Shown here piece after piece: positions 4,702 through 30,629 of a stretch of 32,000 nt of DNA (positions are counted from its first letter, which is position 1; each line of letters opens with the position of its first letter). This stretch comes from Candidatus Saccharimonadota bacterium (lineage in GTDB: Bacteria; Pseudomonadota; Alphaproteobacteria; CAJXXZ01; 1604HC): the NCBI RefSeq assembly GCF_008189285.1, contig NZ_CP043315.1:270001-302000 (forward strand), given 5' to 3'. A model generated the notes under the pieces. That model did no database searches. It was given only the letters and a program-made list of their open reading frames with translations, and had not been told where the DNA came from. The translations under genes were made by a program, and so were the position numbers.

Positions 4702-4905
4702 TAGAAATATTCAAGCAAATAAAGCGCAATTATTTTGAATTTTTAAATAGATAGTAAAATCAAAATAGGTAGTAAATATCAACAAAAAGAGATTTATTAT
4801 ATGATTTTCAATCAAAAAATTTTTGAAGCAAACTTTGATAATTCAGAAAAAATCAATATATTATGCTATAAATCACTACAAATTATAGTTTTGTGAAATA
4901 TTAAA

Positions 4906-5179
4906 AGATTTTAGATTTTAGATTTTAGATTTTAGATTTTAGATTTTAGATTTTAGATTTTAGATTTTAGATTTTAGATTTTAGATTTTAGATTTTAGAT
5001 TTTAGATTTTAGATTTTAGATTTTAGATTTTAGATTTTAGATTTTTAGATTTTAGATTTTAGATTTTAGATTTTAGATTTTAGATTTTAGATTTTAGATT
5101 TTAGATTTTAGATTTTAGATTTTAGATTTTAGATTTTAGATTTTAGATTTTAGATTTTAGATTTTAGATTTTAGATTTT
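4906..5179. repeat. heptanucleotide microsatellite (AGATTTT)x39, with one unit carrying an extra T
   Basis: Counted directly. There are 20 units from 4906, and the 20th (5039..5046) is AGATTTTT. A further 19 units run from 5047 to 5179. No other substitution is visible. Confidence 0.95.
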
Positions 5180-6012
5180 AAAAGGTCATTGATCTAATAA
5201 TCTATACTATAGCTTCATGATTTAATCATCATAACATTTATTGTATAGTTTATTACATAATTGAGTTGTATTACAGAGTTATAAATTACATTGTAAAAAA
5301 TATTTAAGAATATTGTTTTGTTAAATTTGTGTTCGTATTGATAGTGATTTTACAAACAAAAAATCTAAACATTTAAGAGCATTGCTATTAAAATTATTTG
5401 AAAATTGCATAGCAAATTTCTGTTTAATTATATTTATACTGACTATTTATTTAAAAACTCAAAACTGTGTATAAATTCTACTTATTCTGTTGGTATTTGC
5501 TATTTATTGTACATTTAAAACATTATTTATTTAAATTTATTTAAAAATTAAAAAATCATATTTAATTGGCAGTTATTTATAGCATTTGAGTAAATAAATA
5601 TTCTTTTGCATATAAGTTTATCATTTCAGGAAAAATGAAAATGAATTTTAAGTAGATCAAAAGAGAATCAATTAAGAAAGATAAAAATGAATTTTGCAGG
5701 ATTAGTTTGCAGAATTGTTATATAAAATCAAATTAATTGAATGTCACATAAAATCAAAATTGACTGAAATATTGCATAAAATGTATAAAATCATAAATAT
5801 TTCTTGAAAGCATTTTGACGAAAGAATGAAATATTTCTAGAATAAATTAAAAGATGGCTAATAGCAAAAGAAAAAATAACAAGAGTTGTAAATTCAATGA
5901 AATTACCAAATTGTTTTCAACAATATGCAAATTTTTAACAGTATTTGCTTGTAAAATTTAATAAATTGAATGGAAGTTTGTATGAAATGAATTTGTAATT
6001 TTCATAGATTTA

Positions 6013-6110
6013 AAAAAGCTGAACAACCTTGCAAAAAAAATCAATAATTTTTTATAAATATTAAATAAGATCATAAATATCTCAAACTTCCATACCTTTA
6101 ATCTTAGAGG
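6013..6110. repeat. copy A of a ~97-bp imperfect direct repeat in the rplT-ychF spacer
   Basis: AAAAAGCTGAACAACCTTGCAAAAAAAATCAATAATTTTTTATAAATATTAAATAAGATCATAAATATCTCAAAC... aligns by eye with 6188..6284 at roughly four matches in every five positions. Confidence 0.7.
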
Positions 6111-6187
6111 CATTTGCTTGCAATGTTAAATGAGCCTTATGCAGATTGAGTAAAATTGCAGTAAATCAATAATTTTTATAAATTTCG

Positions 6188-6284
6188 AAAAAGCTGAATA
6201 ACTTTGAAAAGAAATCAATAATTTTTATAAATGTTAAATAAAATCATAAATATTTCAAATCTAAACAGCTTTAATTTTGTAGAT
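6188..6284. repeat. copy B of the ~97-bp imperfect direct repeat
   Basis: AAAAAGCTGAATAACTTTGAAAAGAAATCAATAATTTTTATAAATGTTAAATAAAATCATAAATATTTCAAATC... lies 175 bp downstream of copy A. A partial third copy (ATAAAATCATAAATATTTC) is at 5786..5804. Confidence 0.7.
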
Positions 6285-6501
6285 GATTTCTTATAATATT
6301 AAATGCAATTATAATTTTTTATAAAATTTCAATGAGATATCAATAATTTTCATAAATTGTAGAGAGAAAAATTGGCAAAAAAATCAATAATTCATAAATT
6401 GCAGAGAGAGTGCAAAGTAATTTTTATGGGTGAAAAGTATTAATTTCAGAATAAAGGTAATTTGATTTGATCAATGAGAGTATAATGAGTATAATGCTTT
6501 T

Positions 6502-8259: not shown

Positions 8260-8303
8260 TTTCTTTACAAACACTTGGCAAAATTAATCAAAATGGAGGA
8301 CGA
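8260..8303 (+). promoter_or_regulatory. conserved 5' module TTTCTTTACAA-N9-AAAATTAA-...GGAGG upstream of the 905-aa gene
   Basis: The same motif, with the same 9-nt internal spacing and the same distance to the ATG (44, 43 and 46 nt), is found upstream of the 1033-aa and 543-aa genes. Confidence 0.4.
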
Positions 8304-11021
8304 ATGAAATATAAAAATAAATTTTTATTGTCATTAGTAGTGCTATTAAGCGCGGATTGTATGAAAGGTAATCTTGAAAATAATCATATTGCCAGAGATT
8401 TAATGGAACAACTTTCAAAGACACAAGCTATGAATGCAATGAAAGCACATCAAGAAACAATTGATTCTATTCTTTTCATTAACCAAGGAGATTATTACTT
8501 AATTCAAGATGGTCATATGTACAAAGTTGACGATAGTTTGAAAAGTTCTATTTATGCAGATGCTACAGTAGCAAAAATTTCAGATGAAGTAAAAGCAAAA
8601 ATTACTGCAGGAGCAGTGGTTAACAGCGATAAAGAAGTAATTGATTCTGTTTTTGAATTTGTTAACAAAAAATCAACAGATGCTAAAATGAATTTATCTA
8701 ATTTAATGAACACTTTGTTAGAAGATGGGCTTTCTTCTGAAGATGATTTATTTGTTAGAGTTATTTCTGGATCTGAATTAAGCAACAGTGATGCTAATGC
8801 ATCCATTGATAGCTTAAACGATATTGATGAAGAGCATAAAAGTGAATTAAAAACATCTGTGTTGGTATCTGGAAATATTGATTATAAAAATAAGCATGAA
8901 GCATTGATTAGTGCGCAAAAAGAATTAGCACAATTTGCTGAAGACAACAGTGTTGCATTAAAAACTGCAATGAATAAAGCTGAAGCTGCTAAAGAAGAAT
9001 TAATTGAAAATGCAAGCAAAATCAGCGCTACATCTCATGAGATAAAATTAGCAAAACTTTATGCAGAGCAATTGAATATTATGAAAACTTATAAAGAGAA
9101 GATTGAATCTGATCAACGTAAGCTTAATTCTAAAGAAAATTCTGTGTTAGAGCTTAAAAGTGGTTCAGAGCGTGAAGCTGAAGAATTTAATCAAATTATG
9201 AGAAATGCTGTAGAAGCTGTAAGTATGATCAAAGCAATGCATAATGAATTAGATTTCTGGAAAACAAATGTTGGAGGAAGTGGAAGCGATAACCAAACAG
9301 CTAGAATGACTAGTTTTTACAACAAACTAAATGCAATGACAAACTTAATAGAGGTGTCAGGAATAGTTTATGCTAAAAATAATAGTGGTGAGTTAAATAG
9401 TTATGATCAATACAAAACAATGATTGAAGATCAAGACTTTATTAGCAAGATGAGCTCGCTTTCCATTGAAGGAGATAGCAATCCTATTTCAAAAGCTATA
9501 TATAATTTGTTGCAAATGACCAATTCATTAATAAAGTACCATGCTGCTTTCAACAGATCTCAATCTTTAGAATTTTCAGATTCAATAATTGAATTAAGCA
9601 GAGATTATTATAGAACTAATAGCAATGGAGACAAAGAGATTGAAATTGGAACTTTTGAATACATTGGTATCATGAGAGATGCGCAAAATAAAGATTACAC
9701 TTCCCAAGAAAATGATGCAGAGCTTATAGATCATGTAGAAAAAGCAATAAAAGTAGGGGTATCTTACGAAGAATTATTGCCTAGCGATGCTCTTGTTAAA
9801 GTTGATGCTGCATATAGACATATCCTAGATTCTGATAACACAGCAAAAGAAATAGAACTTGATGCAAAATTGATTGAACAATTAATGTTTGATGCAAATC
9901 AAGTTGTTGTAATAATAGATAATGCAGAAGTAATAATTGATTACAGCGATCTAATGATTACAAATGATGAGAAAGAAGAATTTTCGTATTTCCAGTATTC
10001 ATATGAAAGCGATGATGAAAAAGTAGAGCTTGATGAGAAAATTAGAGCAATTTTGATTAAAAAGCTTAAAGAGCATGCTTTAAGATCGACAGAAATCATG
10101 AAAATTGAAGCAAAAGAGTCTTGGGTTTCTATGAATGATACTATGGGAACACTAAATCAAGCTATTAACAATAACCTTGAAAAATCTCAAGATGATGATG
10201 GAAAATATACAAATATAGCCATGTATTACATTGCTGAACTTTCTGGGTTTGATGGTTCTAATTATGAAGAATTAAATAATGCTGTTAAAGATCATTTGAC
10301 AAGTCTTGGCTATGATGGGATAAACAAACCACAAGACATAGGAATCAGATGGAATTTTATACTTGGTGATCTTTACAATGAAGACTTATTGAATGTTTAT
10401 AAAAATGCTGTAAATGTTAAAAAAGCTTTAGCTGCATTAAAAATTGAGAAAGAAAAAGAAGAGCCTAGCGCTGAATTGAAACAAGATATCGAAGGTAAAA
10501 AAATAGAAGCAGAAAAATATAGCAATGCATTGCATGATTTTGTATATACTCCTGAGCCAGGAAATGGAAATGATCTAAATATTCCTGAAATCTTATGGAG
10601 TGGAGAAGGCGCCGCTTCTAGCTCAGTTAGCATATCATCAGGAAATAGAACAAGAGCAGGTTCTGCTAGATCAATATTTGATGAATATGTAGGGTATGGA
10701 AGATTCCAAGAAGGAATTGACAATTCTCTAAAAACATTAACAAATCCATTCGCAGGCGCAGCTTATTCTGCAGAGAAAACTGTACATACAAACTCTTTGG
10801 ATGCTCTTAATGCTGCAATTACAGAATTGGAAGCAAAGTTTAATGAAATAAATATTGATTCTGATGCATACAAATTTGAACTAGAGAAAAGCGCTGAATT
10901 GCATGCAGAAATAGATGTTCTTAATGTTGAAGTTAGTGCAAAATATCAAGATCAAGAAGATAAAGTTGCTGGATTGCAATCAGAATTAGATGCAATTCGT
11001 GAACAAATTAAAAATGCATAA
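8304..11021 (+). CDS. hypothetical large acidic, coiled-coil-rich secreted or surface protein
   Basis: A 905-aa uninterrupted ORF in a very AT-rich background, with GGAGG 4 nt upstream of the ATG. The N-terminus MKYKNKFLLSLVVLLSADC looks like a signal peptide. I recognise no family motif. Confidence 0.8.
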   Translation: MKYKNKFLLSLVVLLSADCMKGNLENNHIARDLMEQLSKTQAMNAMKAHQETIDSILFINQGDYYLIQDGHMYKVDDSLKSSIYADATVAKISDEVKAKITAGAVVNSDKEVIDSVFEFVNKKSTDAKMNLSNLMNTLLEDGLSSEDDLFVRVISGSELSNSDANASIDSLNDIDEEHKSELKTSVLVSGNIDYKNKHEALISAQKELAQFAEDNSVALKTAMNKAEAAKEELIENASKISATSHEIKLAKLYAEQLNIMKTYKEKIESDQRKLNSKENSVLELKSGSEREAEEFNQIMRNAVEAVSMIKAMHNELDFWKTNVGGSGSDNQTARMTSFYNKLNAMTNLIEVSGIVYAKNNSGELNSYDQYKTMIEDQDFISKMSSLSIEGDSNPISKAIYNLLQMTNSLIKYHAAFNRSQSLEFSDSIIELSRDYYRTNSNGDKEIEIGTFEYIGIMRDAQNKDYTSQENDAELIDHVEKAIKVGVSYEELLPSDALVKVDAAYRHILDSDNTAKEIELDAKLIEQLMFDANQVVVIIDNAEVIIDYSDLMITNDEKEEFSYFQYSYESDDEKVELDEKIRAILIKKLKEHALRSTEIMKIEAKESWVSMNDTMGTLNQAINNNLEKSQDDDGKYTNIAMYYIAELSGFDGSNYEELNNAVKDHLTSLGYDGINKPQDIGIRWNFILGDLYNEDLLNVYKNAVNVKKALAALKIEKEKEEPSAELKQDIEGKKIEAEKYSNALHDFVYTPEPGNGNDLNIPEILWSGEGAASSSVSISSGNRTRAGSARSIFDEYVGYGRFQEGIDNSLKTLTNPFAGAAYSAEKTVHTNSLDALNAAITELEAKFNEINIDSDAYKFELEKSAELHAEIDVLNVEVSAKYQDQEDKVAGLQSELDAIREQIKNA

Positions 11022-11173
11022 TTTAGCAATCTAATTGTTTATATTAAGTATTGGTAATATTAATAATGAGCGTTAGAAATCTAACATTTATATAAAATTA
11101 CAAAAACACCTTAAAGAGCTTGTAGAAATGCAGTGCTTATGCAATGAATTGAAAAGCTATAAAGTATTATCAT

Positions 11174-11216
11174 TTTCTTTGCAAGTATTATTTAAAATTA
11201 AATCAAAGGAATGGTA
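11174..11216 (+). promoter_or_regulatory. conserved 5' module TTTCTTTGCAA-N9-AAAATTAA-...AAGGA upstream of the IQ-motif protein gene
   Basis: See the alignment in the findings. The similarity to the 543-aa gene continues into the first 26 nt of coding sequence (ATGAAATATATCT[T/A]TTTAAGCATTG). Confidence 0.4.
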
Positions 11217-14200
11217 ATGAAATATATCTTTTTAAGCATTGTTGTCTTATTAATCTCAAACTCTCATATTGTGGCAGATGAAATAAATGATGATGAAATA
11301 TCACAAAATAAAATTGTAGAAAAAATCTATAAAAGAAAAATAAAACCAACTATTTCTAAAAAGAACAGTATAAAAAAAAGAAAATCAAGAAAATCTAAAC
11401 TTAAAGCCACAAAAAGAAGCAGAATAACTGGATCTAAAAGGCGAAAATTACCCGCAAAAAGAAGAAAGTCCTCTGCATCAAAATTGACCAAAAGATCATC
11501 AAGAAAAAGAGTTAGATTAAGTAGGGCAAAATATCCAATTGCAAAAAAACTTAATAAGATTAACTCTGTAGCTGTAAAGATTTCATATGAAGATATATAT
11601 AAAAATGAAATTAGAAAATTACAAGAAAAAGAAAATGAAATTAGAAATAAATTAATTGCTAGTAAAAATAATCATATGCTAGAAATAAAACTTAACAAAG
11701 AATTGACTAGCCTGCATTTGAAAACGATGCATTACAAATTATTGTTAAACAAACCCAATGATATATCAATGCAAATAAAGCAATTATCAAGCATGCAAAT
11801 GGATATTAGAAACAAATTTGACAAAGAAAAAGATCAAGCACAGAAAGATAAGCTGAGAAAAGAATTGCATGCCATTAGTGTGAATATAAATCATTATAAA
11901 TCACTATTAAATAGAAATAGATCTATGAAATCTGATTCATTATCAAGAAGAGATATGTCCGTAGAAGTTAATTTCAGGCCAAAAATTAACGAACCAAAAA
12001 GCACTGAGGGCGCAACTATATTGATGACAAAAGAACAAACTATATCACGTCCTGAAGAAATTGCAATTATTGCCCCAAAAGATTCTGTTGCATTAATAGA
12101 ATCATCAAGTAAAATTGAAAATCCTGCTAGAGACTCAGTTGTTTTAAAAAATAGCGAGCAAACAATTGTTAATCCAAAGAAATTAGTTGAGCTTGAAAGC
12201 GCATCATCAACAATAACAAATAAAGAAGATAAAAAAGAAGCGATCACCTTAGTGGAAAAAGAAGAGTATATAAGTAGAGATGAGCATAAAAAAAAGACTG
12301 TTGAATTATCTGGACATATGCATGAGATTAAATCAGAACACACAAAGCCTAATTTGATTGAGAAGGGGTCGCAGTTAGCAATTCCTCAATTTAAGGAAGA
12401 GGTAAAACTATTTGCGAATGATAAATCAATTACATCTCCAATAAGGGAAGAGCAGAAAAAAATAATTGAAGAAGAAAAACAACAACAATCAGCAACAAAG
12501 ATTCAAGCTTTATTTAGAGGAAGAAGTGCTAGAAAAGCAACTGAAGTAAAGAAAGTTGCTGAAGCAGAAGAGAAAAAGCTAGAAGAAGCAAGATTGAGTG
12601 AAGAAGAAAATAGAAAATTAATTAAATCTGAAGAGAAAATAGATAGAGAAGAAGGAGAAAAAAAGATTCGACTTTTATTGGAAAAATTAGTTGAAATAAA
12701 AGATATAAGAGCTACAACAGACAAAAGAAAAGAAAGGAATAAAAAATCAGAAGAAGAAAAAGAAACAAGAAAAGAAGTTGAAATAGTAGAGAGAAAGGAA
12801 ATAGAAGAACTAAAAGCTAAAGAAGAAAGAGCAAGAAAAGAAGTAGAAGCAAGATTAGATACAGAAGAAAAAGCAGCAACAAAGATTCAAGCTTTATTTA
12901 GAGGAAGAAGTGTAAGAAAAGCAACTGAAAAAACAACCCCAAAAGATATTGAAAGGAATAGCTCATCTGCCCCTTTAACTCCAAGAAAATTAAGTTTTGA
13001 TTCCTCAGACGATAGATCTTCAAGAGCTGAATCAGTCGATCATACACCTGGGCATGAAGATAAAAGAATATCAAGAGGATCAGATAGATCAACGTTTTCT
13101 TCAGATTCAACTTCTTCAAAAGGTTCAAAAAGATCATTAACAAAAGAGGAAATTGCAAAAAAAAATCAAAGCGCGAAGGTTGAAATAAACAATAATATAG
13201 AAGGGCAAAGAAGAAATGAAGCAATAACAAGAAAAAAGAACAAAGATATAAATAATAGAAAAAAAATAAAAATAAAACAAAACAAAATTAGAGCTAATAA
13301 TAGAATTAAACAAAATAAATTAAGAAAAGAAAAAGATCTGAGATTGTTCGGAAGAAAAATAGCAGAAGAAACTAATAGAAAACAAAAAGAATTAGAGAAA
13401 ATTAGAAAAGATAAACTAGATATTAAGCGGCTCAGTGAAGAAGAAAGTCGCACAAGGTCTGAATTGCAAAAAGAAGAAAGTTCTGGAAGATTAATGATAA
13501 AAGATTCTAAAGATAAAAATACATGGAAAGAAATTGCATTAAGTGAGAGTGATAATAACACTGAAGGACATGAAAATGATGATGAAAGCATGATTTCTGA
13601 AGAAATAACTCAAATTGAAAAAACTCTTGATCAGTTGAATGGAGAAAAGAAATCTATAGAAAATGGCATAAGAGAGTTTAAAAATAAAGTTGTGTTAAAA
13701 AATAAAGAAAAAGCAGAGTTAGCAAAAGATTTAAAAAAATTAAATGAATTGAAGAAAAAATCAGAAGAAAAATCTAATGAAAAAACACTTCCATTTGGAA
13801 GAACAAATCTTCAAAAGCTTAATGAAGCAGTTAAAAAACATGGAGGGTCAAATGCTGTAATTTTAATTGCAAGCATTGGAGAAAAAATTACAAGTTTAGG
13901 AAACGAAATAGTAGAATTAGAAAAAAACAAAAAAAAGCATGAAGAGAAATTAATTGCAGTGGAGAATGAAATTAAATCTAAACAAAAAGAATTGCAAACA
14001 AAGAAAAGCTTGCTTGAAAGAATAAAAAATGCCTTTAAAGCAGCGAGATCAAAAGTTATCCCTAGTAAAAGCAAAAAAAATAACAATCGAAATGCAGGAT
14101 CATCTGTAATTCCTTATTATGATGAAAGTCGTGAGGTATATTTATTGGATCCACAAATAACTCCTTACACATCTGAAAGAAGAAAAAATAATGACACAAA

Positions 14201-14318
14201 ATCTAGATCACCTTCTGGAAGTAGGTCAAATTCATTAAACTCTCCTTCTAAGTCTTCTTCTGCCAAAAATAAAACTCCACCTAAGTCAAAATATGCACAT
14301 ACAATATATTCTTATTAA
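11217..14318 (+). CDS. hypothetical secreted, hyper-charged protein with two IQ motifs
   Basis: A long ORF (1035 aa from the ATG at 11211). I prefer the ATG at 11217 because MKYIFLSIVVLLIS... then aligns with the paralogous MKYIYLSIAALLIS... and sits 6 nt after AAGGA. The order is signal peptide, a K/R/S polybasic tract, coiled-coil-like segments, and IQxxxRGxxxR twice. Confidence 0.85.
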   Translation: MKYIFLSIVVLLISNSHIVADEINDDEISQNKIVEKIYKRKIKPTISKKNSIKKRKSRKSKLKATKRSRITGSKRRKLPAKRRKSSASKLTKRSSRKRVRLSRAKYPIAKKLNKINSVAVKISYEDIYKNEIRKLQEKENEIRNKLIASKNNHMLEIKLNKELTSLHLKTMHYKLLLNKPNDISMQIKQLSSMQMDIRNKFDKEKDQAQKDKLRKELHAISVNINHYKSLLNRNRSMKSDSLSRRDMSVEVNFRPKINEPKSTEGATILMTKEQTISRPEEIAIIAPKDSVALIESSSKIENPARDSVVLKNSEQTIVNPKKLVELESASSTITNKEDKKEAITLVEKEEYISRDEHKKKTVELSGHMHEIKSEHTKPNLIEKGSQLAIPQFKEEVKLFANDKSITSPIREEQKKIIEEEKQQQSATKIQALFRGRSARKATEVKKVAEAEEKKLEEARLSEEENRKLIKSEEKIDREEGEKKIRLLLEKLVEIKDIRATTDKRKERNKKSEEEKETRKEVEIVERKEIEELKAKEERARKEVEARLDTEEKAATKIQALFRGRSVRKATEKTTPKDIERNSSSAPLTPRKLSFDSSDDRSSRAESVDHTPGHEDKRISRGSDRSTFSSDSTSSKGSKRSLTKEEIAKKNQSAKVEINNNIEGQRRNEAITRKKNKDINNRKKIKIKQNKIRANNRIKQNKLRKEKDLRLFGRKIAEETNRKQKELEKIRKDKLDIKRLSEEESRTRSELQKEESSGRLMIKDSKDKNTWKEIALSESDNNTEGHENDDESMISEEITQIEKTLDQLNGEKKSIENGIREFKNKVVLKNKEKAELAKDLKKLNELKKKSEEKSNEKTLPFGRTNLQKLNEAVKKHGGSNAVILIASIGEKITSLGNEIVELEKNKKKHEEKLIAVENEIKSKQKELQTKKSLLERIKNAFKAARSKVIPSKSKKNNNRNAGSSVIPYYDESREVYLLDPQITPYTSERRKNNDTKSRSPSGSRSNSLNSPSKSSSAKNKTPPKSKYAHTIYSY
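12501..12533 (+). other. IQ motif 1 (IQALFRGRSAR) within the 1033-aa protein
   Basis: An exact fit to the IQxxxRGxxxR consensus. The context SATKIQALFRGRSARKATE resembles neuromodulin AATKIQASFRGHITRKK. Confidence 0.7.
12885..12917 (+). other. IQ motif 2 (IQALFRGRSVR) within the 1033-aa protein
   Basis: An exact fit to IQxxxRGxxxR in the context AATKIQALFRGRSVRKATE. The DNA patch 12876..12929 is 52/54 identical to 12492..12545. Confidence 0.7.
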
Positions 14319-14411
14319 CTTGATTAATTATTATCCGTGATGAGGGAGAATAAAGTGAAAATTCCAAGGACAGCTCTTTTGTTTATTAGTTAAGCAAACT
14401 ATAATGTGCGC

Positions 14412-14996
14412 ATGAAGATATTCATAATTTTTGCTTTATGTATGTCTATTTCTGGGAAAAGTCTTTCTCAAGAATCGCATATTGTTTTTCTTGGTAAAAT
14501 TTTAGATTACCATTCGGATCATGATGAAATAAACTTGATTAATCAAAGAAATATTTCTCTGAATAAACTGAGGTTAGATTTTCCGCTTTTTGATTTATTT
14601 ATTTCTCAGAAAAATAAAACTTCTTTTGCAAAATGGTTTTATCATTTTTGCTCTTTGTCTATTATGAATTCGAGTAGAAAAAAACAAATGCAAGAAATTT
14701 ATAGCCTTATTAATATTTCTGTTGATGGATTTATTAATGGGGTCATGCAATTAAACTCTATTGATTGTAGCACTTTGTCAGATAATGCAAAAAATTGGAT
14801 TGATAGAGCGCAATTATGGATTAAAGCTTACAAAAAATTCGAAAAATCATATCAAGATAAATCTGGAAAGTTATATCAAAATAATAATCACGATATAACT
14901 AGAAAAATAAGTGAAAAGTCTTTTAAAAATAAATTTGAACAAAAAACAAATGAAAAGCTTGATGAGAAAAATTCTAAGAAAGTGGATGAAATATGA
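14412..14996 (+). CDS. hypothetical exported or membrane-anchored protein (possible reduced HemX/Mic60-like)
   Basis: The ORF has a hydrophobic N-terminus, MKIFIIFALCMSISGKSLSQ. Its stop overlaps the next gene's start (ATGA). The C-terminal ...LSDNAKNWIDRAQLWIKAYKKFEK resembles the end of mitofilin/HemX-type domains, but the match is weak. I prefer the ATG at 14412 over the track's GTG at 14406. Confidence 0.6.
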   Translation: MKIFIIFALCMSISGKSLSQESHIVFLGKILDYHSDHDEINLINQRNISLNKLRLDFPLFDLFISQKNKTSFAKWFYHFCSLSIMNSSRKKQMQEIYSLINISVDGFINGVMQLNSIDCSTLSDNAKNWIDRAQLWIKAYKKFEKSYQDKSGKLYQNNNHDITRKISEKSFKNKFEQKTNEKLDEKNSKKVDEI

Positions 14997-15733
14997 TTTT
15001 TAAAATAATATCTATAATATTGATTGTAATTACAATTAAAATATTTGATTTTATACCAATTCACATTAAAGTAGGAGATCTGAATTATAAATGCAATTTT
15101 TCTATCATAATTTTATTTGCGATGATGCTTTCTTGGATTATTTATTATTTTTGCAATTTAAAATATTGTATAAAATCCCACTGCAATAAATCTAAGCAAA
15201 GCAAGATGGAAAAACAAGAAATTGAAACAAATAAGAAAATAATTCAACAATCAATTGAAAATGTTTGCAAGATTTGTTTAAGCAATTATAATGATTTAAA
15301 TGGCCTAATAAGCGAAAATGATAAAAATGATAAAATTAATGAAGTTGAAAAAAGTTGCGCTCATAATAGAAGCATTTTAATTGATATGATTGATATGATT
15401 TGCAATGTTAATTTTCATAGTGCGAAAAATCTTGACTTATATATAAACGATAAATTATTTGAATTTATAGAAAAATCATATGAGTATTTAAGAAATAACA
15501 ATTACATTAAAGCGCAGGAAAGTTTAGAAAATTTGTATGATCATGTAAAAATATCGCCAAAAATTCATAATTATAAGTGCATTTATGAGAATTTATATGT
15601 TTGTTATATAGAAAATAAAGAATATGATAAATGTCAAAATATGTTAGATGATTTATATAAACGAAATGCAATTAATAAGGATCAATATGATGAAAAATGC
15701 AGAGGAATACTGAAGTATGGGAAAATTATATAA
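14993..15733 (+). CDS. hypothetical membrane protein, HemY_N-like N-terminus with a helical (TPR-like) C-terminus
   Basis: Two N-terminal hydrophobic helices flank IHIKVGDLNYKCNFS, compared with E. coli HemY VLIQTDNYNIETSV between its two TM helices. The C-terminal half is helical, with TPR-like Y/L/N spacing. Confidence 0.6.
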   Translation: MIFKIISIILIVITIKIFDFIPIHIKVGDLNYKCNFSIIILFAMMLSWIIYYFCNLKYCIKSHCNKSKQSKMEKQEIETNKKIIQQSIENVCKICLSNYNDLNGLISENDKNDKINEVEKSCAHNRSILIDMIDMICNVNFHSAKNLDLYINDKLFEFIEKSYEYLRNNNYIKAQESLENLYDHVKISPKIHNYKCIYENLYVCYIENKEYDKCQNMLDDLYKRNAINKDQYDEKCRGILKYGKII

Positions 15734-18406: not shown

Positions 18407-18582
18407 TGTAATTCGCAAATAAATTTTCTTTACAAGTGATTTATGAAAATAAATATTAACATGGAAAATTCATTGTATAGTATAAATTTGCATAAATAAA
18501 TATTTCTATGAAAATGATTGGTGAAAATATCAATGTAAAAAATAGCATTGTTTTATGTTGCTTGCTTTTAGCGTTTAGTATT

Positions 18583-18656
18583 TATATTTCTATCGATTTC
18601 ATTTGGCTGCAGCTTTATTTTATATTTCTATCGATTTCATTTGAATGCAGTTTTAT
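18583..18656. repeat. tandem duplication of a ~36-38-bp unit (TATATTTCTATCGATTTCATTTGRMTGCAGYTTTAT)
   Basis: The copies at 18583..18618 and 18621..18656 differ at 3 positions. They lie in the convergent intergenic region between dprA and the 543-aa gene. Confidence 0.8.
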
Positions 18657-18781: not shown

Positions 18782-20413
18782 CTAGATGTCATTTTCATCA
18801 GAATCTTTATAATTACCAGACATCATACGTTGCCTAATCAGTGCCTTTCTCATTTTTTCTTCAAATTCGCTTTTTGTTTCTTTCGCTTTCTTTAATTTGA
18901 AGTTTCCTTTTCTTATTTCTGCGAACAAATCCGCTCTGCTATCTTGATCTTCACTTAAAGGCATTGAAGCTTTAGACAAGCCTTTTATTCCTTCTTTAGG
19001 AAGTGCTGGGGCATCAGGAATTGCTCCAGTTTTAGGCGCAGGAGGAGGTGTTGGAATTGCTCCAGTTTCAGATGCAGGAGTTTCGTCAAAAGCTATTTCT
19101 CCCATTGATAATTTATCAGCTCTTTTTTCTGCAGCAAGATCAAGAGCTTTTCTTTTTTCTCTGCCTTTTTCTTCAAGCTCTATCAGAAAACTCGCTTTAG
19201 TTGAATTTCCAGATGTTGCTTTAGACAAGCCTTTTATCCCTTCTTTAGGAAGTGCTGGGGCATCAGGAATTGCTCCAGTTTTAGGCGCAGGAGGAGGTGT
19301 TGGAATTGCTCCAGTTTTAGGCACAAGAGGAGGTGTTGGAATTGCTCCAGTTTCAGATGCAGGAGTTTCGTCAAAAGCTATTTCCCCCATTGATAATTTA
19401 TCAGCTCTTTTTTCTGCAGCAAGATCAAGAGCTTTTCTTTTTTCTCTGCCTTTTTCTTCAAGCTCTATCAGAAAACTCGCTTTAGTTGAATTTCCAGATG
19501 TTGCTTTAGACAAGCCTTTTATCCCTTCTTTAGGAAGTGCTGGGGCATCAGGAATTGCTCCAGTTTCAGATACAGAAGTTTGAAGTGCTGCATTAGTTGA
19601 ATTGTCTCCTGCTATTTTAGGAATTGAAAAATAATCATCATCTACATTAGTTGAATTGTCTGCTGTTTTTTTAGGTGAATTCAACGAAGGTGCATTTATG
19701 CTTCCTTTTGCTGATCTTTCAATTTCGTTCATCTCTTGAGAAGCATTTTGTTCGATTGCACTTCTCTTGCTATGTTCTTCTATTAAAAATGCTGAGGAAT
19801 TTTCTAGAATATTTTTAGCTTTATTAGTTGCAAATTGAGTGCTTTTAATTTTTGATTCAACAACAAATAATCTATTTTCCAATTCCACTTTTTCTTTTGC
19901 TGTTAATTTTGTGTTGTTTGTCAATTTTGTTGTTAACGCCATTTTCTCTGCATTCATGCTTCTTAGATCAGTCATATTTTTGTCATAATCTTTAGATAAT
20001 TGGTCATAATAAGAAACTGTTGCGCTTTTTGTTTTTGCAGATGATGCAGATGATCTTGAAGTTGGTCTGAAGCTTCTTCTTGCAATTCGTCTTCCAGATC
20101 TAGTTGCGCTTCTTCTAAATACAGGCTTGCGAGATCTTGAAATTCTTCTTTTAGCAGCTCTTCTTGATTTGGAAGTAACTTTCCTTCTTTTAGCAGCGGA
20201 TTTTCTTCTTGATTTAGCAGCGGATTTTCTTCTTGATTTGGAAGTAACTTTCTTTCTAGATTTTCTTTTTGTTTTTTTAAACGATTTATCATCGCTTTTT
20301 TTTATTTCAGTGTGAACAGGCTTTCCCTCTACAATACTCATGTTAACTTCTTTTGCATCAGCATATGTATTAGAAATCAATAAAGCGGCAATGCTTAAAT
20401 AGATATATTTCAT
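18782..20413 (-). CDS. hypothetical secreted protein: signal peptide, polybasic tract, coiled coil, proline-rich tandem repeats, C-terminal WH2/connector/acidic (WCA-like) tail
   Basis: A 543-aa ORF with AAGGAG 7 nt upstream of the ATG. The N-terminus MKYIYLSIAALLISNTYA|DA looks like a Sec signal peptide. The C-terminus ADLFAEIRKGNFKLKKAKETKSEFEEKMRKALIRQRMMSGNYKDSDENDI carries the WCA-like tail. Confidence 0.9.
   Translation of the reverse strand: MKYIYLSIAALLISNTYADAKEVNMSIVEGKPVHTEIKKSDDKSFKKTKRKSRKKVTSKSRRKSAAKSRRKSAAKRRKVTSKSRRAAKRRISRSRKPVFRRSATRSGRRIARRSFRPTSRSSASSAKTKSATVSYYDQLSKDYDKNMTDLRSMNAEKMALTTKLTNNTKLTAKEKVELENRLFVVESKIKSTQFATNKAKNILENSSAFLIEEHSKRSAIEQNASQEMNEIERSAKGSINAPSLNSPKKTADNSTNVDDDYFSIPKIAGDNSTNAALQTSVSETGAIPDAPALPKEGIKGLSKATSGNSTKASFLIELEEKGREKRKALDLAAEKRADKLSMGEIAFDETPASETGAIPTPPLVPKTGAIPTPPPAPKTGAIPDAPALPKEGIKGLSKATSGNSTKASFLIELEEKGREKRKALDLAAEKRADKLSMGEIAFDETPASETGAIPTPPPAPKTGAIPDAPALPKEGIKGLSKASMPLSEDQDSRADLFAEIRKGNFKLKKAKETKSEFEEKMRKALIRQRMMSGNYKDSDENDI
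18887..18934 (-). other. candidate WH2 (G-actin-binding) motif ADLFAEIRKGNFKLKK
   Basis: It matches the WH2 pattern LLxxIxxGxxLKK(V/A) with one extra residue before LKK. Compare WAVE (RSVLLEAIRKGIQLRKV) and N-WASP (ALLDQIRQGIQLKSV). Confidence 0.65.
18968..19567 (-). repeat. near-identical in-frame tandem repeats (249 bp, 285 bp, and a partial third of ~60 bp) encoding proline-rich and helical modules
   Basis: Units begin at 18971, 19220 and 19505. Units 1 and 2 differ by 2 substitutions plus a 36-bp indel that adds one more TGAIPTPPxxPK sub-repeat. Confidence 0.9.
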
Positions 20414-20459
20414 TACTATTCTCCTTTTATTTTAATTTTAAATATGATTTGCAAAGAAA
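20414..20459 (-). promoter_or_regulatory. conserved 5' module (reverse complement: TTTCTTTGCAA-N9-AAAATTAA-...AAGGAG) upstream of the 543-aa gene
   Basis: This is the third occurrence of the motif at the same distance from the start codon. Confidence 0.4.
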
Positions 20460-20676
20460 TTGCTAATTGATAGGAGAAATTGCTTATACTTAACTTATCA
20501 TGATTTAATTCTACATAAATTTATTTATCAAACATCGCTTTATTTCAATGATTTGTTTGTTTTAAAAAGAATTTAGAAAGAAAAGAGCAAATGATTTTTG
20601 AAGAATATTTGAAGTGATTTGCTTGTAAAATTTACAGAATAATGAGATCTTTAACACAAAGGAACTCAATTTTCTC

Positions 20677-29183: not shown

Positions 29184-30629
29184 TCAATTAACTGAAGGGT
29201 TGTGAGAAATTTTTACTCTACAGAATGCAGAAACAACTGTTCTCCATTTATCATTTTCACTTAAGGTATTGAATTCTTTTTTGCTTGTTAAATAAGATTT
29301 GATCAACTGCTCATCTTTGAATGCTTTGTTATCAAATTTCATAATTTCCATTTTAGCTCCAAATGTAAATTTATTTAAAGGCATAGCAAATCCAGTGGAA
29401 ATAATATTTGATTTCGCATGAATTGTTGAATCTTTAGCATCTTTCCATTCTGTTTTTCTGTCTGAATACATGTATGAAGCGTAAATCTCCAAGCCTTCCA
29501 TTGATCCTGAAGGAATTGTAAATGCAACAGTAGGAGAAACAACATACCCTCCATTTGCTTTGTCATGAATTTGATTGTCAAATTTCACACCTTTGATTTT
29601 ATTATTATGAAAATCATCAGAATAAGATTGAATTTTTTTATCAGCAATTAATCCATAGCTTAATCCAAATTTCACAAATTTATAGCCAATATTATTTCCT
29701 AATGTAAATCCTTTAACATCATTCATTTTAACTGCATCTACTTCATATCTTTTTGCATAACCAAAAGTAGCATAAGAGCAGTTTGTGAAATTACCTTTTT
29801 TAGCATTCCATTTTATACCAGCTCCTAAATGATTTTTCATAGAATCATCATTTAACTTATCATTTTCATTAATTTTAGCAAAAGAGTATCCGCCTTTATT
29901 TGGGTGATTAGGTGTGTAACTTAATGCGGCTACAACATTATTTTCCTTGTTGTTAATAAATTTCTTTGCCTTGATCATTATTTTCATGGAAGTTGCAGTA
30001 TTAGTATTAATTCTCTCATTTGTCATTACATTAGGAGCAAGTATCTCGTCTGACATGGCATACAAGTTTGTTGTTTTGCTTATAATGCCACAACTCAAAG
30101 GAGCGAGCTTCTTGTCAGCTCCATAAGTGTAACCAGCTCTAGCTGACAATTTTAATTTCGTTTGTCTGAAATAATTTTTCACATATAAGCTTGCTTGACT
30201 TACAGAAAACTTCTCAGGATTTGCTTTAATGGCAAATTGAACACCAATTTTCATATTTCCTGTTATTTTTTGCAAAGCAATACCTATTTTTGCATTAGAA
30301 AATTTTAGATTATCAAATGGATCTTTGATTTTTGATTTTTTATCTTTAGGTGACCAATTTTTTTTATCACCTTCAGACCAAACAATTTGATCTTGATCTG
30401 AAAATAAATGAGTTGATAAAATTTCTACATTTCCAGCAATATTGAAAGGGGCTTTACCTCTGTAATCATATATATCGCTTTCATGAAATGGAGATTCTTC
30501 ATTTGAATTTGAGTTATTACTCTCTTTCTTTGAAGTATTGCTTTGTGATTTAGGAGTTTTTTGATTGCTCTTATCAATGCTTTTTTCTGCATTTACACAT
30601 GCAATAGCTAATAATAAATAAACTAACAT
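29184..30629 (-). CDS. putative beta-barrel outer-membrane protein (porin-like)
   Basis: A 481-aa ORF with the signal peptide MLVYLLLAIACVNA|EKS. There are many short alternating hydrophobic/polar strands ending in aromatic residues (GYTYGADKK, FTLGNNIGYKFVKFGLSYGLI, GLEIYASYMYSD, FTFGAKMEIMKF). I recognise no family signature. Confidence 0.55.
   Translation of the reverse strand: MLVYLLLAIACVNAEKSIDKSNQKTPKSQSNTSKKESNNSNSNEESPFHESDIYDYRGKAPFNIAGNVEILSTHLFSDQDQIVWSEGDKKNWSPKDKKSKIKDPFDNLKFSNAKIGIALQKITGNMKIGVQFAIKANPEKFSVSQASLYVKNYFRQTKLKLSARAGYTYGADKKLAPLSCGIISKTTNLYAMSDEILAPNVMTNERINTNTATSMKIMIKAKKFINNKENNVVAALSYTPNHPNKGGYSFAKINENDKLNDDSMKNHLGAGIKWNAKKGNFTNCSYATFGYAKRYEVDAVKMNDVKGFTLGNNIGYKFVKFGLSYGLIADKKIQSYSDDFHNNKIKGVKFDNQIHDKANGGYVVSPTVAFTIPSGSMEGLEIYASYMYSDRKTEWKDAKDSTIHAKSNIISTGFAMPLNKFTFGAKMEIMKFDNKAFKDEQLIKSYLTSKKEFNTLSENDKWRTVVSAFCRVKISHNPSVN

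Follow-up and report, generated by a model that had tools for sequence, protein, structure and literature searches.

Phytoplasmas live in the host cytoplasm without a type III or type IV secretion system (T3SS or T4SS), and their effector SAP11 combines a Sec signal peptide with a basic segment resembling a nuclear localization signal (NLS) and with helical regions. Liberibacter, which also lies directly in the host cytoplasm and has neither system, delivers effectors of the same layout through Sec (PMC7073121, PMC10405523). In the Holosporales, the 89-kDa and 63-kDa proteins of Holospora obtusa are stored in the periplasm and translocated to the host. The two genes analysed here lie in a 32,000-nt stretch of contig NZ_CP043315.1 (positions 270,001 to 302,000; at its full length, the window) and encode proteins of 1033 and 543 amino acids, p1033 and p543. 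p543 (FZC35_01160) was 100% identical to a protein of Candidatus Cytomitobacter indipagum that carries the UniRef label 'WH2 domain-containing', and p1033 was identical to P0002, a hypothetical protein listed at NCBI for the same bacterium and likewise 1033 amino acids long. The best reading of the two sequences is that both are Sec-exported candidate host-interaction proteins. With a calmodulin-binding layout in p1033, an actin-assembly layout in p543 and an unusual export head in common, they are concrete candidates for such a role.

Candidate effectors that carry a Sec signal and look eukaryotic are already known as a general kind from reduced intracellular bacteria. The combined head of p1033 and p543 (regulatory DNA and a signal peptide, then an acidic spacer, a basic tract of about 90 residues and a predicted helical hairpin) apparently has no detectable relative. 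As in the Liberibacter effectors, a Sec signal peptide comes first, with a basic, NLS-like segment and helical regions behind it; however, there is no sequence relationship to these or to SAP11, which are small proteins (10–25 kDa) with short NLSs rather than a tract of about 90 residues and a charge of about +40. Phytoplasmas, unlike C. indipagum, also have no outer membrane to cross. The Holospora proteins come from the same order and are orphans with a signal peptide and a link to actin or the nucleus, but searches with p1033 and p543 found no relative, the likeness rests on descriptions of the Holospora proteins, and Cytomitobacter, unlike Holospora, has no infectious form.

C. indipagum belongs to the Holosporales, lives as an endosymbiont in the marine protist Diplonema aggregatum and has a 628-kb genome of about 29.5% GC, with which the GC content of the window (19–37%) is consistent. 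It lies free in the host cytoplasm, without a surrounding host membrane, prefers a position adjacent to the mitochondrion and is occasionally seen inside it. A prominent periplasm has been described, peptidoglycan synthesis is kept and the retained Sec set comprises secABDFY, ffh and yidC. There is no type I secretion system, and a reduced type II secretion system/type IV pilus (T2SS/T4P) set (gspD, gspF, pilB, pilM and pilQ) includes the secretins gspD and pilQ. Signal-peptide proteins (106) and hypothetical proteins (276) both exceed the numbers in C. primus (60 and 169), which makes it plausible that secreted orphans have expanded in this lineage. To our knowledge, no effector of diplonemid endosymbionts has been characterized, nor any account given of how they keep their position in the host cytoplasm or enter the mitochondrion; in the papers examined on Cytomitobacter, we found no mention of WH2, IQ or actin.

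The paralogy of p1033 and p543 was strongest in the 5′ non-coding DNA and the first eight codons (Table 1). The upstream DNA (−60 to −1) was identical at 49 of 63 positions (78%) and the first eight codons at 23 of 24 nt; identity then dropped to 63% over +25 to +60 and to background beyond, the background being given by random 60-mers of the window (50±4%, maximum 61%). No synonymous change was present in codons 1–8 and four were present in codons 11–15, which points to selection at the nucleotide level on the 5′ ends (promoter, leader or translation-initiation region) and not to recent gene conversion. A composite motif, TTTCTTTRCAA-N9-AAAATTAA, occurred three times in the window (none expected), each time 43–46 nt before an ATG, that of p1033, p543 or p905, a 905-residue protein encoded directly upstream of p1033. 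A sigma-70 promoter scan of the window returned fewer sites than a shuffled sequence did and did not mark the shared element, and we infer only that this element may be a promoter or operator. AAGGA lies 6 nt before the p1033 ATG and AGGAG 7 nt before that of p543. The p1033 start at 11217 is favoured over an upstream ATG at 11211 because of this AAGGA, the homologous p543 site and the NCBI protein length of 1033 residues. We note that the two cassette copies (11166–11287 and 20343–20467) form an inverted repeat of about 120 nt, 73–83% identical, and that the 9-kb segment between them carries p1033, trcR, plsY, dprA and p543. A lone TTTCTTTACAA in the dprA/p543 intergenic region (18425–18435, +) could be what decay has left of a fourth such element; a 38-nt tandem repeat nearby (2.1 copies, 90–92% identical, 18581–18656) overlaps an open reading frame (ORF) for a hydrophobic 56-residue peptide.

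BLASTP aligned residues 1–111 of p1033 with residues 1–101 of p543 at 33% identity (E=1e-7). When the segments were compared separately, each against 2000 composition-preserving shuffles, the similarity resided in the signal peptide, which scored 61 against 17.2±3.5 for shuffled sequence (z=12.5; reached by 0 of 2000). The near-identical starts given in a preliminary description of this DNA, MKYIFLSIVVLLISNSHIVA followed by DE and MKYIYLSIAALLISNTYA followed by DA, were confirmed. Both can be divided into MK, a hydrophobic core (YIFLSIVVLLI in p1033, YIYLSIAALLI in p543) and a polar end (SNSHIVA before DE, SNTYA before DA). The description had also called them Sec-type signal peptides, and this held: judged by rule, both N-termini show every sequence feature of the type cleaved by signal peptidase I (SPase I), that is, a positive n-region (K2 in p1033), a hydrophobic core within the expected 10–15 residues (maximum 11-residue Kyte–Doolittle values of 3.14 in p1033 and 2.33 in p543) and small residues at −3 and −1, with a canonical A-x-A-type cleavage site in both proteins (I-V-A at −3 to −1 in p1033). 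The early mature region was positively charged in neither, the net charge of its first 18 residues being −4 in p1033 and −2 in p543, and the basic tract starts 15–24 residues past the cleavage site. Positively charged residues soon after a signal peptide prevent export by Sec and invert the topology, so a conserved acidic spacer is what would be expected if export must succeed despite the basic tract. Two other readings of these N-termini were rejected: p1033 and p543 have no cysteine and the lipobox of p905 is non-canonical, which argues against lipoproteins, and the acidic mature N-terminus argues against a mitochondrial presequence.

Behind the spacer comes the polybasic tract, which had been put at about 75 residues; it is present in both proteins, and when delimited as a run free of acidic residues it proved somewhat longer (89 and 94 residues). 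The highest net charge per 60-residue window reached +31 in p1033 and +32 in p543, the next highest among 20 proteins of the window being the +17 of ribosomal protein L20 and all others +10 or less. AlphaFold2 in single-sequence mode predicted the p1033 tract to be disordered throughout (predicted local distance difference test, pLDDT, <50), and that of p543 mostly so (<50), with a weak helix at residues 59–91. A Pfam scan of the tracts gave no match, including none to H1 or Hc. A 24-nt (8-residue) tandem unit detected by TRF lies inside the p543 tract (4.5 copies, 20160–20263), and on this ground the tract appears to be undergoing remodelling by slippage. Similarity between the tracts did not rise above composition (z=1.6; 151 of 2000 shuffles); they are alike in composition, length, position and charge and not in sequence. 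The argument for nuclear targeting from K-(K/R)-x-(K/R) matches fell away, since the counts, five in p1033 and two in p543, equalled those of shuffled tracts (4.4 and 3.2; P=0.46 and 0.87). Such patterns would seem compatible with nuclear targeting and are no evidence for it. Basophilic kinase patterns and helical amphipathicity likewise showed no excess over shuffles.

The acid-free runs of both proteins end at S-Y-x-D, where a helix start had been proposed from the sequence, and the AlphaFold2 models place the start of a helical hairpin there, with helices 124–176 and 180–240 in p1033 (pLDDT 70–85) and 131–166 and 172–237 in p543 (pLDDT >90). A Foldseek search with the p543 model returned generic helical hairpins and nothing specific, and neither spacer, hairpin nor remaining sequence showed significant similarity between the two proteins in the shuffles. 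The paralogous N-terminal architecture of the preliminary description stands as a layout and as homology of the signal peptides, and not demonstrably as residue-by-residue homology of the tracts. The S-Y-x-D boundary and the matching predicted hairpins nevertheless suggest that the whole of the first 240 or so residues may derive from one ancestor.

The C-terminal parts had been likened to those of eukaryotic proteins. For p1033 this view was upheld by two stretches that matched the IQ motif (PF00612) with 33.7 bits, the cut-off being 20.3, and whose coding DNA is a direct repeat of 73 nt, 89% identical. A single helix of about 120 residues (440–561) is predicted between them, with further long helices following, and a weak PDB match coincides with one of the motifs. 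The IQ–helix–IQ layout recalls a myosin lever arm. For p543 it was upheld in part: the WH2 motif (PF02205) scored 23.4 bits when the C-terminal fragment was scanned and 19.7 in the whole protein, with a cut-off of 23.1. AlphaFold2 placed helices at 489–501 and 514–531, the second lying behind the motif and followed by a short tail ending NYKDSDENDI, of which DSDENDI is acidic. Upstream, a 285-nt repeat accounts for GAIPxPP units, which are proline-rich, together with a helical unit; an FH1-like Pfam match on the proline repeats (E=1.7e-5) remained below the cut-off. Pfam also found no WH2 match in the two repeat units upstream, although to the eye their helix, SFLIELEEKGREKRKA, resembles WH2. 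The near-perfect duplication (97–98%) suggests that this unit, proline-rich and helical, expanded very recently. A PDB sequence search and an NCBIfam scan found nothing specific.

The order of elements in p543 (proline-rich, WH2, helix, acidic tail) recalls the proline-rich and WCA regions of WASP-type proteins, which are mimicked by RickA of Rickettsia. RickA, however, has no Sec signal; Sca2 of Rickettsia and BimA of Burkholderia are autotransporters, and VopL of Vibrio and TARP of Chlamydia are T3SS substrates. p543 has one confident WH2 motif, a tail without tryptophan and no sequence similarity to RickA, Sca2, BimA, VopL, VopF or TARP. As the tail tryptophan is absent and no RickA-type NCBIfam model matched, p543 was not classed as a WCA-type activator of Arp2/3. 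An autotransporter actin factor of the kind of Sca2, BimA or IcsA, which ends in a beta-barrel translocator domain, was rejected too, Pfam and NCBIfam having given no autotransporter match and the C-termini of both proteins being predicted to be helical or disordered.

Table 1. Coordinates in the window of the features of p1033, p543 and p905.
Feature	Position	Strand	Basis or remark
p1033 coding sequence	11217–14318	+	1033 aa
p1033 shared 5′ cis block	11166–11216	+	upstream DNA identity
p1033 motif TTTCTTTGCAA-N9-AAAATTAA in 5′ block	11174–11201	+	motif scan
p1033 Shine-Dalgarno AAGGA	11206–11210	+	
p1033 putative signal peptide, aa 1–20, MKYIFLSIVVLLISNSHIVA then DE	11217–11276	+	
p1033 acidic spacer, aa 21–35	11277–11321	+	translation, charge profile
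p1033 polybasic acid-free tract, aa 36–124	11322–11588	+	89 aa, 39 K/R, 14 S
p1033 predicted helical hairpin, aa 124–240, starts at SYED	11586–11936	+	AlphaFold2
p1033 IQ motifs (two)	12473–12545 and 12857–12929	+	Pfam PF00612
p543 coding sequence	18782–20413	-	543 aa
p543 shared 5′ cis block	20414–20467	-	upstream DNA identity
p543 motif copy in 5′ block	20432–20459	-	
p543 Shine-Dalgarno AGGAG	20421–20425	-	
p543 putative signal peptide, aa 1–18, MKYIYLSIAALLISNTYA then DA	20360–20413	-	
p543 polybasic acid-free tract, aa 43–136	20006–20287	-	94 aa, 41 K/R, 21 S
p543 predicted helical hairpin, aa 131–237, starts at SYYD	19703–20023	-	AlphaFold2
p543 285-nt tandem repeat	19017–19578	-	97–98% identical
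p543 WH2 motif, aa 490–514	18872–18946	-	Pfam PF02205
Third, weaker 5′ element copy (8260–8287) and p905 putative signal peptide	8260–8354	+	

We tentatively propose, with some way to go before calling it probable, that p1033 and p543 are exported by Sec to the cell surface, where the polycationic tract would serve as an envelope tether by bulk charge and the hairpin as a stalk displaying the actin- and calmodulin-related tails. In this model a duplicated 5′ cassette, comprising the regulatory and ribosome-binding region, the signal peptide, the acidic spacer of 15–24 residues, the tract of about 90 residues (disordered, charge about +40) and the hairpin of about 110 residues, would have been joined in p543 to the proline-rich repeats, the WH2 motif and a connector-like helix, and in p1033 to the IQ–helix–IQ rod and further coiled coils. 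SecYEG and SecA would export both proteins, the acidic spacer allowing translocation to start despite the basic tract behind it. From the periplasm they would reach the cell surface through the retained GspD/PilQ secretin machinery or by another route; there the tract would bind electrostatically to the anionic envelope and the stalk would expose the putative actin- and calmodulin-binding tails to the cytoplasm of the host. Selection would then act on the charge, length and position of the tract and not on its sequence. Surface display is favoured because no other anchor was found by Pfam or NCBIfam in either protein (no autotransporter, transmembrane or lipobox feature) and because actin nucleation by a WH2/proline-rich protein usually profits a bacterium only when the protein is surface-bound. 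A precedent from the same order is provided by the signal-peptide periplasmic proteins of Holospora (89 kDa and 63 kDa), which pass into the host and have been connected with actin or the nucleus.

Several considerations weigh against this proposal. It would be energetically unfavourable to bring about 40 positive charges across SecYEG when the membrane potential opposes them, and the reduced T2SS/T4P machinery may not secrete proteins at all. RARP-1 of Rickettsia, a signal-peptide protein once called an effector, reportedly proved to be periplasmic. The tail of p543 is without the tryptophan typical of Arp2/3 activators. There are two members and apparently no orthologues, so that the evidence for constraint is confined to one pair, and the tract might just as well have a polyanion of the host as its target. 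The last point leads to the main rival account, one we find unlikely yet serious, in which p1033 and p543 are set free in the host, need the signal peptide for nothing but leaving the bacterium, and carry a tract that targets the nucleus or nucleolus (as an NLS), acidic phospholipids such as phosphatidylinositol 4,5-bisphosphate, phosphatidylserine or mitochondrial cardiolipin, tubulin tails, F-actin or RNA. The K/R/S composition does resemble that of eukaryotic polybasic switch domains. K/R/S-rich, disordered, membrane-binding segments of 10–25 residues occur in eukaryotic proteins with actin- or calmodulin-related motifs such as N-WASP (basic region) and MARCKS (effector domain), but the tract here is of about 90 residues, stands behind a bacterial signal peptide and is alike in composition only. 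The symbiont lies beside, and occasionally inside, the mitochondrion, a 63-kDa protein from the Holospora periplasm reaches the host nucleus, and NLS-bearing Sec-dependent effectors are known from Liberibacter (PMC7073121, PMC10405523). The tract does hold NLS-type and basophilic-kinase-type patterns; their counts, however, are those expected from composition. The N-terminus left after cleavage is acidic, hence the tract is not a mitochondrial presequence, and release would forfeit the surface position on which WH2/proline-rich nucleation usually depends.

We consider it rather improbable that both proteins remain in the periplasm as envelope proteins, with the tract bound to peptidoglycan or membrane lipids and the IQ and WH2 motifs as chance low-complexity matches without a host function. 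The prominent periplasm and retained peptidoglycan synthesis would suit such a role, the two models are just 21–28 residues long and WH2 fell under the cut-off in the whole-protein scan. On the other hand, the two IQ copies are held at 89% DNA identity around a 120-residue helix, WH2 stands in canonical order between proline-rich repeats and a helix with an acidic tail, neither calmodulin nor actin exists in the periplasm, and a 628-kb genome is unlikely to retain 1576 codons of functionless sequence. Failure of export altogether, with the hydrophobic N-terminus an uncleaved anchor or irrelevant and the tract in the cytoplasm, for instance bound to the nucleoid like histone-H1-like proteins, appears very improbable. 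By the positive-inside rule, extreme positive charge favours cytoplasmic retention, and we take the composition of the tract to be like that of chlamydial Hc2 and H1-like tails. Against this, Pfam gave no H1 or Hc match, the 15 residues C-terminal of the hydrophobic core are net negative and its N-terminal side positive, which predicts an N-in/C-out orientation, both proteins have a canonical A-x-A-type cleavage site, and the conserved acidic spacer would be hard to account for. We give equally little credence to a neutral origin, in which replication slippage and low-complexity DNA, purine-rich and biased towards AT, would have produced a tract without a function of its own. A strong AT skew (0.28–0.43) does run across p1033, the p543 tract contains the 24-nt repeat and the two tracts cannot be aligned; nevertheless, purine-rich sequence elsewhere in p1033 gives a mixture of K and E, whereas all 89 and 94 residues of the tracts are free of D and E, which makes an origin without function unlikely, and the same position between spacer and hairpin, the same length and the same charge recur in both genes, which elsewhere show no more than background similarity.

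If the tract does anchor or target by charge, it would be a simple and easily evolved way for reduced Gram-negative symbionts to display host-interaction domains. A bolder version, which we regard as a long shot, is that the polycationic tract represents a new kind of device that, whatever its sequence, serves display on the surface or passage through the outer membrane. It would allow a minimal-genome Gram-negative endosymbiont, without an autotransporter, lipid anchor, T3SS or T4SS, to present host-cytoskeleton modules, namely a WASP-like actin factor and a calmodulin-binding lever-arm mimic, and would so drive the actin- and calmodulin-dependent positioning of the symbiont beside, and sometimes into, the host mitochondrion. 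If none of this holds, the locus would still be a clean case of cassette duplication (regulatory DNA and signal peptide) yielding lineage-specific secreted orphans.

A modular effector family with further members had been anticipated. A HMMER profile of the N-terminal module (residues 1–135 and 1–147), run against 1.84 billion representative proteins, recovered only p1033 and p543 at E≤0.001, and word-indexed searches with the full proteins returned each only itself. Scored locally, a profile of the N-terminal alignment gave 276–352 bits on these two. One protein detects the other at only about 25 bits locally, corresponding to an E-value of about 1–2 at that database size; we estimate that a third member equally close should score better against a two-sequence profile. 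A search for more proteins with the MKYI(F/Y)LSI start and a polybasic tract had been suggested as well. Scanning a genome collection that did not contain C. indipagum itself with the back-translated motif gave 53 chance hits, and the six inspected, alphaproteobacterial ones included, were short ORFs with no tract. A metagenome scan with the 5′ element plus ATGAAATA gave two hits, both chance. On present evidence, p1033 and p543 thus appear to be orphan proteins, a pair with a looser third gene and not a large family.

The third gene is p905. Its 5′ element lies 44 nt before the ATG, and its upstream DNA (−60 to −1) reached 64% identity, against the background maximum of 61%. Its signal peptide, MKYKNKFLLSLVVLLSA followed by DC, is related to those of p1033 and p543, and beyond it no further similarity to either protein was found. 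p905 is strongly acidic (net charge −64), rich in coiled coils and without a basic tract, and no database family was found for it. Two more orphan genes follow p1033 (14406–15733, +), for which reason the region from 8.3 to 15.7 kb looks like a small island of lineage-specific, putatively exported proteins. One encodes a 196-residue protein with a signal-peptide-like start, MRMKIFIIFALCMSISG, and the other a 246-residue protein that has a membrane segment at its N-terminus and matches TPR weakly.

The remainder of the window carries the housekeeping genes pheS, trx, rplT, ychF, trcR, plsY, dprA, glyQS, tyrS and groESL, and Rfam and tRNA scans over its whole length gave no match. Between rplT and ychF, a 1.8-kb stretch (4702–6501) has no ORF longer than 51 residues and a central GC content of 19%; DnaA-box matches there were at chance level and the tRNA and Rfam scans without a match. 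It is close to position ~4000, where GC skew and gene orientation switch sign. Finally, a 481-residue protein (29184–30629, -) that had no Pfam or NCBIfam match begins with the signal peptide MLVYLLLAIACVNA, followed by EKS, is rich in K and N with alternating hydrophobic residues, and could be a porin-like outer-membrane orphan.

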